From an uncultured Eubacteriales bacterium (GTDB lineage: Bacteria > Bacillota > Clostridia > Oscillospirales > Acutalibacteraceae), in assembly GCA_934462705.1 (NCBI GenBank), contig CAKSIH010000001.1:47761-111760 (forward strand): 64,000 nucleotides of DNA, written 5' to 3'. Of the stretch, positions 57,667 through 60,027 are shown piece by piece; the first letter of the stretch is position 1; the number at the start of each line of letters is the position of its first letter. A model generated the notes under the pieces. That model was not told the DNA's origin. It made no database searches and saw nothing but the letters and a program-made list of their open reading frames with translations. The position numbers were made by a program, and so were the translations under genes.

Positions 57667-57972
57667 ATGAAGAAGGGAATAAACGCATGGGCAAAAGAGC
57701 TAAAACACAATGAAGGTTTTGCCAAAAAGTATGAAGGAGTAAAAACAGTAGAGGACATAATTAATGTTGCGAAAAATCAGGGTTATGATATAAATAGAAA
57801 GGATTTAAAAGAATTGGACCTTGATGCAGTAGCAGGAGGTTTGCTTGACAAGCCAATGGTAAATGTGGATCTTCAAATGGCAATGGCACAGGGAACCCAG
57901 ACAGCAATAGCTTCAGGAGCCGGTGCCCAAGCTGGTGTATCTGGAAAGCTAGAAGTAGATGCTGACAATTAA
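57667..57972 (+). CDS. Precursor P3: Nif11-like leader (58 aa, ...LDLDAVAGG) + 43-aa core
   Basis: AAGGAGG RBS. Leader DNA is near-identical to that of P4. Confidence 0.8.
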   Translation: MKKGINAWAKELKHNEGFAKKYEGVKTVEDIINVAKNQGYDINRKDLKELDLDAVAGGLLDKPMVNVDLQMAMAQGTQTAIASGAGAQAGVSGKLEVDADN

Positions 57973-58119
57973 TTTATTAAGTTTTTGCGTACACTTTTAT
58001 GAAGCTAGCATTAAAGCTGATAAAAGTTTAGGTAAAGGTAAACATTTTTGTAAAGACAGAGTTGATATTTTACGGAAGTTAACATGAAAACCTATTAAAA
58101 TTTTTGGAGGTGTTATATT

Positions 58120-58446
58120 GTGAAAAAGGGAATAAATGCATGGGCAAAAGAGCTAAAACACAATGAAGGTTTTGCCAAAAAGTATGAGGGAGTAAAAACA
58201 GTAGAGGACATAATTAATGTTGCGAAAACTCAGGGCTATGATATAAATAAAAAGGATTTAAAAGAATTGGACCTTGATGCAGTAGCAGGAGGCATAGGTG
58301 GTGGAACAAATGTAACAGCAAGTATGGACCTTACTACGGTTCTTGGAACCATGACCTCAACTGCAATATCAACAGGTGTGCATTCCTCAGCTTCTACATC
58401 AGGACCTCAAACTATGACTCAGAGCGGCTTGGGCCGGCAAAGCTAG
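58120..58446 (+). CDS. Precursor P4: Nif11-like leader (58 aa) + 50-aa Ser/Thr/Gly-rich core
   Basis: GTG start after GGAGG. Leader differs from P3 at two residues only. Confidence 0.8.
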   Translation: MKKGINAWAKELKHNEGFAKKYEGVKTVEDIINVAKTQGYDINKKDLKELDLDAVAGGIGGGTNVTASMDLTTVLGTMTSTAISTGVHSSASTSGPQTMTQSGLGRQS

Positions 58447-58471
58447 TTAAGCTTTTAGGTGGTGAGTTTTT

Positions 58472-58732
58472 ATGAAAGACATAAATAAATGGTTAAATCG
58501 TATTAAAACTGATGAAAAGTTTGCACAGAAGAACAATGGCAAGACAATAGAGGAGATAATAAAAATAGCTAAACAGCAGAACTATGACATAACTGAGGAA
58601 GATGTTATGAAAAATGTATCGGGTGGAGGTATAAGTTCAACTCGTATAACAGCAAGTGCATCATCTATAGCTATAGCGATGGGTGATCACAGCAAGGCGA
58701 CAAACGCTTCAGAGATTACTATAAACATGTAA
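58472..58732 (+). CDS. Precursor P5: Nif11-like leader (52 aa, ...MKNVSGG) + 34-aa core
   Basis: MKDINKWLNRIKTDEKFAQK...IIKIAKQQNYDITEEDV leader pattern. RBS GGTGGTGAG. Confidence 0.75.
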   Translation: MKDINKWLNRIKTDEKFAQKNNGKTIEEIIKIAKQQNYDITEEDVMKNVSGGGISSTRITASASSIAIAMGDHSKATNASEITINM

Positions 58733-58757
58733 ACGTTAATTAAAAATATAATAAAAT

Positions 58758-58828
58758 CCGGCTTTATATGAGTGTAATTATAATTTGTAGTTGTTTTAGT
58801 TGTAGTAAGTATATAAAGCCGGGTTTTT
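58758..58828 (+). terminator. Long-loop hairpin + T5 between P5 and P6 (possible internal terminator/attenuator)
   Basis: CCGGCTTTATAT ... ATATAAAGCCGG (12-bp perfect stem, loop of about 40 nt) followed by GTTTTT. Confidence 0.45.
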
Positions 58829-58851
58829 ATATTAAATGAAAGGAGTAATAA

Positions 58852-59142
58852 ATGAAAAGTGCAAAAGAATTTAAAGAAAGAATAAAAACAGACCCAGAAT
58901 TTAAAGATAAATTTAAAGGAATTCAAGATGTAAATGAAGCAATAAGAATAGCAAAGGAAAACGGTTATGATTTAAAAAACTGCAGTCCACAAGAAGAACA
59001 AGAGCTAACAGAGGACATGCTTGAAAATGTAGCTGGTGGGAAAAATACAACTAAGACACAAGTTAAAACGCATATACCAAGTAATGTAGTAGTAGTAACA
59101 GATCCTAATGATCCGGAAAAAAAGACTATAATTCCAATATGA
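58852..59142 (+). CDS. Precursor P6: Nif11-like leader (63 aa, ...MLENVAGG) + 33-aa core
   Basis: Leader identical in protein sequence to P9. RBS AAAGGAG. Confidence 0.8.
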   Translation: MKSAKEFKERIKTDPEFKDKFKGIQDVNEAIRIAKENGYDLKNCSPQEEQELTEDMLENVAGGKNTTKTQVKTHIPSNVVVVTDPNDPEKKTIIPI

Positions 59143-59160
59143 ATTAGGGAGGCGTGGCAG

Positions 59161-59439
59161 ATGAACAGTTTAGAAAAATTTAAATTAGCTATTCAAAATG
59201 AAGAATTTAAAAATAAATTTAGCAGTGTAAAAAATATAGATGAAGCTTTAAAAATAGCAAAGTCAAATGGCTATGACTTAAATAAAGATGAAGTTTTAAA
59301 AGATAATGAATTAAGGGAAGATATGCTGGATGCAGTAGCAGGAGGAAAAGAGGCAGAGGTAGAAAAGATTGAACATACAACAATTAATTCAGGAAAAAAT
59401 AGCCACATGTATGTAAAATATGACACTTCACTTAAATGA
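59161..59439 (+). CDS. Precursor P7: Nif11-like leader (62 aa, ...MLDAVAGG) + 30-aa core
   Basis: Leader pattern FK..I...EFKNKF...IDEALKIAKSNGYDL. RBS GGGAGG. Confidence 0.8.
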   Translation: MNSLEKFKLAIQNEEFKNKFSSVKNIDEALKIAKSNGYDLNKDEVLKDNELREDMLDAVAGGKEAEVEKIEHTTINSGKNSHMYVKYDTSLK

Positions 59440-59463
59440 GCAAATGCGAAAGGCGGGACTGTA

Positions 59464-59745
59464 ATGAATAGCATTGATGAATTTAAAAAAAGAATAAAAG
59501 ACGATGATACTTTTAAAAAATACTTTAAGGATGCAAAAAGCACTGAAGATGTTATAAAAATAGCTAGGCAAAAAGGATATGATCTAACCAAATGTACAGA
59601 GCAAGAAGAAACACAGCTAAAAGAAGATATGCTTATGAATATAGCAGGCGGAAGCAAAACAGAAAAGGTTAAAATAGGTCAGGCATCAGCCGTAACAATT
59701 GGAGATGGTAGCTCAACAGTTCTAACGGGGAAAATAAAACTTTAG
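59464..59745 (+). CDS. Precursor P8: Nif11-like leader (63 aa, ...MLMNIAGG) + 30-aa core
   Basis: Same leader pattern. Core contains AVTIGDGSST. Confidence 0.8.
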   Translation: MNSIDEFKKRIKDDDTFKKYFKDAKSTEDVIKIARQKGYDLTKCTEQEETQLKEDMLMNIAGGSKTEKVKIGQASAVTIGDGSSTVLTGKIKL

Positions 59746-59772
59746 AAAAGTAATAAAAAAAGGAGTGATAAA

Positions 59773-60027
59773 ATGAAAAGTGCAAAAGAATTTAAAGAAA
59801 GAATAAAAACAGACCCAGAATTTAAAGATAAATTTAAAGGAATTCAAGATGTGAATGAAGCAATAAGAATAGCAAAGGAAAACGGTTATGATTTAAAAAA
59901 TTGCAGTCCACAAGAAGAACAAGAGCTAACAGAGGACATGCTTGAAAATGTAGCTGGTGGAAAAAATGATGTAGAGATAACAAGGGATATTTATTATGTT
60001 GATGAAAATGGAAATGTATTATTTTAA
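59773..60027 (+). CDS. Precursor P9: Nif11-like leader (63 aa, identical to P6) + 21-aa core
   Basis: About 195 nt near-identical to P6 through GG-KN, then unrelated sequence. Confidence 0.8.
   Translation: MKSAKEFKERIKTDPEFKDKFKGIQDVNEAIRIAKENGYDLKNCSPQEEQELTEDMLENVAGGKNDVEITRDIYYVDENGNVLF

Follow-up and report, generated by a model that had tools for sequence, protein, structure and literature searches.

How does a bacterium come to carry nearly the same leader DNA in front of peptide cores that have little or nothing in common? The question is raised by a 64-kb stretch of DNA (the window) from an uncultured gut Clostridia bacterium (contig CAKSIH010000001.1), which holds an array of 13 tandem precursor genes, P1 to P13, at positions 56837-61292. 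Each of the 13 leaders closes with [VI][ASC]GG, and the cores that follow the double glycine (GG) are 21 to 64 residues long. Prochlorosins and LahA peptides are examples of natural combinatorial peptide libraries built on conserved leaders with hypervariable cores, and with this array the origin of leader and core DNA becomes a testable question in gut Clostridia. An earlier reading by a model that saw only the sequence (the original prediction) had proposed cassette-like diversification at the GG site, pointing to the leader pairs P3/P4 and P6/P9. The array and a close sister lineage show two processes, gene conversion confined to leaders and unequal crossing-over at GG that makes a new gene. 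The locus is quite probably an exported-peptide operon in which recombination among paralogues is limited to the leaders and the cores evolve almost freely.

Leader and core DNA are separated by a step

The duplicated DNA consists of two pairs of blocks, A1/A2, holding the leaders of P3 and P4, and B1/B2, holding the leaders of P6 and P9 together with the next two codons, Lys-Asn (KN) (Table 1). The blocks were delimited by a two-breakpoint likelihood fit, and both pairs were also seen by a repeat finder and in an in-register comparison. Identity is 96.0% inside block A and 98.5% inside block B, and ungapped identity outside, on both sides, is 32% and 34%, respectively (twice the log-likelihood difference, 2dLL, 213 and 224). 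In bins of 15 nucleotides (nt), identity falls from 14-15/15 to 4-7/15 at the GG codons of P3/P4 or the GG-KN codons of P6/P9. The other edge, at the start codon, is just as sharp, identity jumping up there. For all remaining leader pairs of the array, DNA identity is 29 to 69%. The GG of every one of the 13 leaders is followed by a hypervariable core, and DNA identity drops there between paralogues as well as between orthologues.

The 174 nt of the P3 and P4 leaders (57667-57840 and 58120-58293) contain eight differences, namely, the start codon (ATG or GTG), five synonymous changes, and two nonsynonymous ones (N37T and R44K). Across the 195 nt of the P6 and P9 leaders plus KN (58852-59046 and 59773-59967), there are three differences, all of them synonymous. 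After global alignment, core DNA is 52% identical for P3/P4 and 42% identical for P6/P9, the background level for unrelated cores; the P4 core is a distant relative of the P3 core, with a weak motif common to both. The near-identity of both leader pairs, its collapse after GG(-KN), the unrelated P6 and P9 cores, and the loose resemblance of the P3 and P4 cores had all been described in the original prediction, and these observations are borne out. Gradual decay of identity, which had been named as the outcome that would speak against it, is not what the alignment shows; there is a step and no gradient. One detail has to be corrected. The near-identical stretch of P6/P9 had been said to include the ribosome-binding site, but 58852 and 59773 are start codons, and the similarity around the ribosome-binding site (AAAGGAGT) lies upstream of them and contains a 1-nt indel.

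The P6 and P9 leaders group by genome and their cores by orthology

The sister lineage is represented by a 66.7-kb scaffold (L011) and a second assembly (L102), both from human gut metagenomes and reached through exact-protein look-ups. It is syntenic with the window from the PGM gene to UvrD and carries orthologues of P1 to P6 and P8 to P13, recognised by their cores. The counterpart of P7 (L011 9377-9690) is a pseudogene: a Gln codon has become an in-frame stop, there is a frameshift, and the GG codons are gone. Flanking genes differ between the window and the sister lineage by a synonymous divergence (dS) of 0.25-0.38 and a nonsynonymous divergence (dN) of 0.01-0.04.

The leaders of P6 and P9 agree at 186 of 189 nt within the window and at 177 of 189 nt within the sister lineage, and orthologous copies agree at 164-167 of 189 nt. 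No other leader in the two genomes has a paralogue of the same genome, instead of the orthologue, as its nearest relative. The comparison with orthologous loci, proposed as a check in the original prediction, separates the two parts of these genes cleanly: in the leader plus KN (195 nt), 17 sites group the sequences by genome and 1 groups them by orthology, whereas in the next 60 nt of core no site groups them by genome and 19 do so by orthology (Fisher exact test, p = 1.1e-9). Among the by-genome sites in the leaders, about half are third-position or otherwise synonymous, so convergent selection on the peptide is no explanation. Paralogues that are closer than orthologues, over a bounded tract and at synonymous sites as well, are the signs by which concerted evolution is recognised, and the P6/P9 leaders display all of them. 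The pattern is best read as concerted evolution by gene conversion confined to the leader, with its 3' edge at the processing site.

The function known for such leaders is consistent with this. The C39 peptidase LahT of Lachnospiraceae C6A11 cleaves nine Nif11-type precursors, LahA1-9, after GG and tolerates any core, and its cleavage uses about 13 C-terminal leader residues (PMC6363468). Since so few residues are needed, near-identity at synonymous sites over leaders of 58 to 63 residues fits conversion better than selection.

In the mechanism that we propose, the leader would act as a common handle, and the C39 domain of the first ABC subunit would cut after GG during export of the core. With 13 genes served by one machine, the leaders would be held by purifying selection, and the cores would be almost free. 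P6 and P9 would keep their leaders 98.5% identical by gene conversion, over a tract that would run from near the start codon to GG-KN because homology stops there. P3/P4 would go back to a similar but older event or to duplication of a leader. Unequal crossing-over, within leaders or at the GG-Lys codons, would delete or duplicate genes and build new leader-core pairs. The recombination pathway is presumably homology-driven and of the RecA type.

Probable new leader-core combinations at the GG codons

In L011, the array contains an extra gene in which a short P13-type leader precedes an exact copy of the P12 core. The gene lies in a 253-bp tandem duplication (11161-11413 repeated as 11414-11666, with one mismatch), and the ends of the duplication fall in the shared GGAGGAAAAG, which represents the Gly-Gly-Lys codons of P12 and P13. 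L102, which otherwise matches L011 at 100% across more than 13 kb, is without the duplication; the duplication is either a very recent polymorphism or was collapsed in L102. The L011 junction is probably real, because a de Bruijn assembler would not be misled by a microhomology of only 10 nt. The duplication would then directly exemplify the making of a new leader-core pair at the GG codons, and it lends support to the cassette-like diversification proposed at the outset.

Such events could also be thought to account for the whole pattern. In a scheme of core replacement, the leader and start region would have been duplicated and an unrelated core joined at GG by illegitimate or microhomology recombination, so that the present genes would be young chimeras. 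The L011 duplication, bounded by GG-Lys codons and placing the P12 core on a P13 leader, is just what this scheme expects, and P3/P4, with copy differences that the sister lineage has too, may have originated in this way. However, P6 and P9 with their own cores predate the split of the two lineages, yet their leaders hold 17 lineage-specific shared changes, which requires exchange between existing leaders and not one founding event. As a sole explanation core replacement is unlikely; it complements leader-limited recombination and does not supplant it.

Some contigs of the window species carry recombinant-like joins of their own. L005, L006/L093, and L096 are without the P3 core and spacer (453 bp deleted), and the hybrid leaders of L005, L006, and L096 switch from P3 type to P4 type at three different points. 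In L095, a P6-position leader is joined to the P9 core, with 921 bp deleted, and the end of L004 has the P6 core behind a P9-position leader, a reciprocal-looking join. In L005 and L006, the P6 leader mixes bases of P6 type and P9 type in a mosaic. L004, L005, L006, L095, and L096 are short contigs with 2-3x coverage, and one project supplied three of the five.

A role for Chi sites at these positions was also considered and set aside. The motif GCTGGTGG occurs at the Ala-Gly-Gly codons of P6 and P9 (59032-59039 and 59953-59960), and the window contains three copies against 0.6 expected, two of them at the P6/P9 GG sites. The motif is the Chi of Escherichia coli, is not a Chi known from Clostridia, and may not be that of the host. 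A Chi-hotspot hypothesis had been prompted by the same motif ending prochlorosin leaders, as cited in bioRxiv 10.1101/2020.03.09.984088, but the motif is uninformative here, since the two sites are copies of each other.

Leader and core DNA differ in age and in selection

Synonymous differences (pS) within the window, calculated like the leader and core identities with manually set leader boundaries, amount to 0.15 in the leader and 0.55 in the core of P3/P4 and to 0.09 and 0.64, respectively, in P6/P9, the cores of both pairs being near saturation. Leader DNA and core DNA thus differ in age in both pairs. Given a low pS in the leaders and a nearly saturated pS in the cores, amino acid selection on the cores alone cannot make the step.

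Leader and core rates were also computed separately between orthologues, a further check that had been proposed. Summed over the 12 orthologous pairs, the leaders have a pS of 0.29 and a nonsynonymous difference (pN) of 0.049 (ratio, 0.17), and the cores have a pS of 0.21 and a pN of 0.175 (ratio, 0.84). These ratios indicate purifying selection on the leaders and point to relaxed or diversifying selection on the cores, two possibilities that the data do not separate.

The higher core pN would also be expected if P4 and P9 were recent whole-gene duplicates of P3 and P6, their cores diverging under diversifying selection and their leaders being purified with no recombination at all, and the weak motif retained by the P3 and P4 cores would suit such an origin. 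This explanation is nonetheless very improbable. Selection on the peptide ignores synonymous sites, which are where leaders and cores differ so strongly; the P6 and P9 cores have orthologues in the sister lineage and are hence older than the identity of their leaders; and the 5' edges of the blocks are as sharp as the 3' edges. The original prediction had offered leader recombination or gene conversion and diversifying selection on the cores as alternatives. The former holds for P6/P9, whereas P3/P4 show none since the split; the latter fails as sole cause because of the pS gap, although relaxed or diversifying selection also acts.

The original prediction had warned that the repeats might be artefacts of assembly, due to reads that were collapsed or duplicated, here in a metagenome-assembled genome. 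This is hardly credible. Short low-coverage contigs of the window species do break or switch copies inside the repeats, but both pairs, with identical diagnostic bases, are present in contigs L001 (68.6 kb), L002 (7.1 kb), L003 (5.2 kb), and L094, which stem from separate samples and assemblers; L004 is a further independent assembly with this arrangement, and the sister lineage has both pairs in its two assemblies.

Several observations weigh against leader-limited recombination as an account of the entire array. The comparison draws on a single sister lineage, in two assemblies of essentially one strain, with no full-locus outgroup, and the direction and number of the P6/P9 conversion events are therefore not fixed. 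A scan of JGI metagenomes with P6 found no relative, and the only other P9-like proteins at an intermediate distance, P0005 and P0006, come from contigs whose 1-2 kb leave no room for P6 and P9 together; their amino acid sequences may point to changes on both lineages. The 253-bp duplication is present in one scaffold only, and the recombinant-like contigs may be real products of unequal crossing-over or conversion or, equally, chimeras of the assembly graph. For P3/P4, six informative sites group by orthology and none by genome, so the signs of concerted evolution are absent, and no conversion after the split is seen in the quartet sites. Their copy differences are shared with the sister lineage; any homogenisation of this pair therefore predates the split. 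Divergence is also very low in this part of the array: from the P2 core to the P5 leader (about 57436-58630 in the window and about 7457-8670 in L011), dS between the lineages is 0-0.12, which suggests a recent exchange between them and would have left little time for P3/P4 conversion. The exception inside this segment is the P4 core (dN = dS = 0.21, with an indel). Finally, no maturase is recognisable, and the peptides may be unmodified, in which case calling them RiPPs (ribosomal peptides with post-translational modifications) would be wrong.

Related operons and the DUF7005 protein

Eighty loci were fetched from species representatives by way of DUF7005 (PF22541), the family of the protein encoded 3' of the array. 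Related Clostridia have an equivalent operon with 2 to 13 Nif11-type genes. One such locus (L012) contains about 10 genes with leader DNA 91-97% identical and cores 40-78% identical, and its identity falls at GG from 0.93-0.97 to about 0.55. Similar sets of near-identical leaders on differing cores are found in two more (L014 and L025). The combination is thus a trait of the family and not specific to the window.

Among 46 homologues of the DUF7005 protein, the residues H175-E-x-x-H179, H194, E196, and D200 are invariant, which points to a putative role as a metallopeptidase or maturase. The gene lies within 10 kb of C39-ABC/HlyD export genes in 53 of 81 loci, and the groups concerned include Clostridia, Cyanobacteria, Acidobacteriota, Gemmatimonadota, Planctomycetota, and others. 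The best match among GTDB species representatives is 72% identical. The predicted structure (pLDDT 94.9, pTM 0.91) has no fold match in the PDB at E <= 0.001, and there is no sequence relative in the PDB; no NCBIfam model matches the protein, and a literature search found no paper mentioning DUF7005. The NHLP/Nif11 export system may have in this protein an unrecognised fourth component, with peptidase or maturase function; the protein is flagged here as a widespread, unstudied partner of that system.

Comparison with known systems

Conserved leaders combined with hypervariable cores are already known for the Nif11 family; what the array adds is nucleotide-level evidence of how the combination originates, in a gut Firmicute. 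Haft, Basu, and Mitchell (2010) described Nif11-derived precursors (N11P, TIGR03798) as large paralogous families with a hypervariable region after GG, linked to the TIGR03794/03796/03797 transporter; they argued that the transporter, not a maturase, constrains the leaders, and mentioned intragenic recombination in general terms (PMC2887384). The array has the same long GG-ending Nif11 leaders, hypervariable region, and many paralogues, with the HlyD-like/ABC-C39/ABC trio adjoining. It differs in its host, a gut Firmicute where the first description of the family leaned toward cyanobacteria (PMC2887384), in its Cys-free cores, and in having no enzyme for thiazole/oxazole-modified microcins (TOMMs) and no LanM nearby. 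In addition, the P1, P2, and P13 leaders fall outside or well below the family model, and the HlyD-like protein scores below its cutoff.

The searches for modification enzymes were negative. Neither LanM nor a ProcM-like synthetase is encoded in the window, where the sole open reading frame (ORF) of LanM size is UvrA, or in the 8 kb downstream (read in L001), the rest of the genome not being covered, and Cys is absent from all 13 cores. For TOMMs and proteusins, no YcaO cyclodehydratase, radical-SAM epimerase, or other peptide-modifying radical-SAM gene is found from the promoter at 50182 to the end of the window or in the further 8 kb of L001. The sole radical-SAM-type match in the window is spore photoproduct lyase (11433-12434), a DNA repair enzyme encoded 40 kb from the array.

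These results bear on the likeness to prochlorosins (ProcA/ProcM of Prochlorococcus and Synechococcus) drawn in the original prediction. According to the passages that treat them, prochlorosins share with the array the Nif11 leader family, many precursors for one machinery, and near-invariant leader DNA that gives way to highly variable core DNA at the GG codons. They are, however, class II lanthipeptides that need ProcM and core Cys, both missing here, and their procA genes are described there as scattered in genomic islands, unlike the single tandem operon of the array. The likeness therefore stands as an analogy based on Nif11-type leaders and not as membership. In the relevant passages of two reports, prochlorosin diversity is put down to core indels, "not domain swapping," by a mechanism called elusive (bioRxiv 10.1101/2020.03.09.984088; PMC10783134). 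In the present array, by contrast, leader gene conversion can be seen directly, and so can, in the sister lineage, a GG-site chimera.

Among characterised Firmicute systems, the closest analogue is LahA1-9 with LahT, which also come from a gut or rumen Firmicute and combine conserved leaders with diverse cores in one cluster (PMC6363468). The lah genes form a lanthipeptide operon, whereas the array has no synthetase but a two-subunit NHLP-type exporter and DUF7005. Class II unmodified double-glycine bacteriocins resemble the array in their GG leader, their C39 ABC exporter with accessory protein, and their tandem peptide genes, and the short leader of P13 and the amphipathic or Gly-rich cores of P1 and P2 would be at home among them. 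Their leaders have 15-30 residues, whereas most leaders of the array are Nif11 domains of 52-76 residues; furthermore, the array has no recognised immunity genes, and most of its cores are hydrophilic.

A bolder proposal, which we regard as a long shot, is that the array is a self-shuffling peptide library in which the leaders serve both as export handle and as portable homology and DUF7005 is the missing processing or maturation enzyme of Cys-free Nif11 peptides. If this were true, leaders would be converted, deleted, duplicated, and re-paired with cores at GG, new exported peptides would arise at strain-level rates, and a class of Cys-free Nif11 peptides would exist in gut Clostridia and many other phyla.

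Organization of the locus

The array, the export genes, and the DUF7005 gene all lie on the plus strand (Table 1), forming an operon on the chromosome of a spore-forming gut member of the Clostridia. A perfect sigma-70-like promoter match is the likely start of the operon. A second perfect TTGACA-17-TATAAT match occurs at 62275-62303, so that the two matches flank the operon. The periplasmic-binding-protein-like gene is syntenic in the sister lineage and is found near the export system in 20 of 81 related loci; it may be part of the operon.

TIGR03794 is the best match of the HlyD-like protein despite the score below its cutoff. The genes of the two ABC subunits lie directly 5' of P1, and the C39 domain of the first is supported by a PF03412 match on the identical gene in L001. 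TIGR03794, TIGR03796, and TIGR03797 together, adjoining the precursors, place the locus in the NHLP/Nif11 export system. The C39 domain is the putative enzyme that cuts the leaders after GG, upon which the core would be exported.

TABLE 1 Features of the operon and of the duplicated leader DNA (positions in the window)
Feature	Position	Strand	Remarks
Repeat block A1 (P3 leader DNA)	57663-57839	+	96.0% identical to A2
Repeat block A2 (P4 leader DNA)	58116-58292	+	Partner of A1
Repeat block B1 (P6 leader DNA and Lys-Asn codons)	58850-59046	+	98.5% identical to B2
Repeat block B2 (P9 leader DNA and Lys-Asn codons)	59771-59967	+	Partner of B1
Terminator-like hairpin, 19-bp stem	50078-50123		Just 5' of the promoter match at 50182-50210
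Sigma-70-like promoter match, TTGACA-17-TATAAT, perfect	50182-50210	+	Consensus scan only
Periplasmic-binding-protein-like gene (Peripla_BP_6)	50300-51496	+	First gene 3' of the promoter match
HlyD-like adaptor, NHLP/Nif11 export	51512-52396	+	TIGR03794, 134 bits (cutoff 156, not reached)
ABC exporter with N-terminal C39 double-glycine peptidase (NHLM_micro_ABC1)	52427-54604	+	TIGR03796, 928 bits (cutoff 853)
Second ABC subunit without peptidase domain (NHLM_micro_ABC2)	54620-56812	+	TIGR03797, 741 bits (cutoff 709)
P1 precursor	56837-57136	+	76-aa leader ending VSGG; amphipathic 23-aa core; no family match
P2 precursor	57217-57630	+	73-aa leader ending VAGG; Gly-rich 64-aa core; TIGR03798, 17 bits, below cutoff
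P3 precursor	57667-57972	+	58-aa leader (57667-57840); 43-aa core
P4 precursor	58120-58446	+	GTG start; 58-aa leader; 50-aa core
P5 precursor	58472-58732	+	52-aa leader; 34-aa core
Stem-loop followed by U-run, between P5 and P6	58745-58833	+	-28.1 kcal/mol, z = -4.7
P6 precursor	58852-59142	+	63-aa leader; core KNTTKTQVKTHIPSNVVVVTDPNDPEKKTIIPI
P7 precursor	59161-59439	+	
P8 precursor	59464-59745	+	
P9 precursor	59773-60027	+	63-aa leader; core KNDVEITRDIYYVDENGNVLF
P10 precursor	60033-60371	+	Start codon 60033 or 60042; last 4 nt overlap P11 start
P11 precursor	60368-60697	+	
P12 precursor	60721-61059	+	Leader ends VCGG
P13 precursor	61080-61292	+	Short 27-aa double-glycine leader, non-Nif11 type
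DUF7005 (PF22541) gene, 3' of array	61310-62191	+	232.9 bits (gathering cutoff 27); family member

The remaining genes of the window are housekeeping and sporulation genes, among them uvrA, uvrB, metG, a spoIIE-like gene, and those for SpoVAD, spore photoproduct lyase, and RF-1. No immunity gene was recognised at the locus, and two ORFs, at 20965-22854 (plus strand, 629 residues) and 24056-25855 (minus strand, 599 residues), have no Pfam match at E <= 1e-5.

The precursor genes

Seven of the 13 precursors score above the curated cutoff of 32.3 bits of the Nif11-like leader family TIGR03798: P9 (51.6 bits), P6 (51.1), P11 (46.2), P10 (43.3), P8 (38.0), P12 (35.5), and P7 (32.9). P3, P4, and P5 reach 27.5-29.7 bits (E about 1e-6), significant yet below the cutoff, and TIGR03798 has no match in P1 or P13. 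Matches to PF07862 (Nif11) were also obtained for leaders of the array. By score, seven precursors, including P6 and P9, are thus members of the Nif11 family, and the P3/P4 pair is borderline.

The stem-loop between P5 and P6, whose sequence the sister lineage has conserved 5' of its P6, resembles a terminator or attenuator and divides the array into P1-P5 and P6-P13; partial termination there may give the two groups different expression levels.

A motif, h-x-h-x-x-G-D-G-S/T-x-h, recurs in the otherwise unrelated cores of P8 (59653-59742), P11 (60551-60694), and P12 (60907-61056), with the instances AVTIGDGSSTV, TLITGDGTWVF, and VDLFSGDGSVF; it has no family match. Weaker versions occur in the cores of P5, P7, and P10. 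Another motif, Y-x-D-x-N-G-x-h, is common to P9 and P13.

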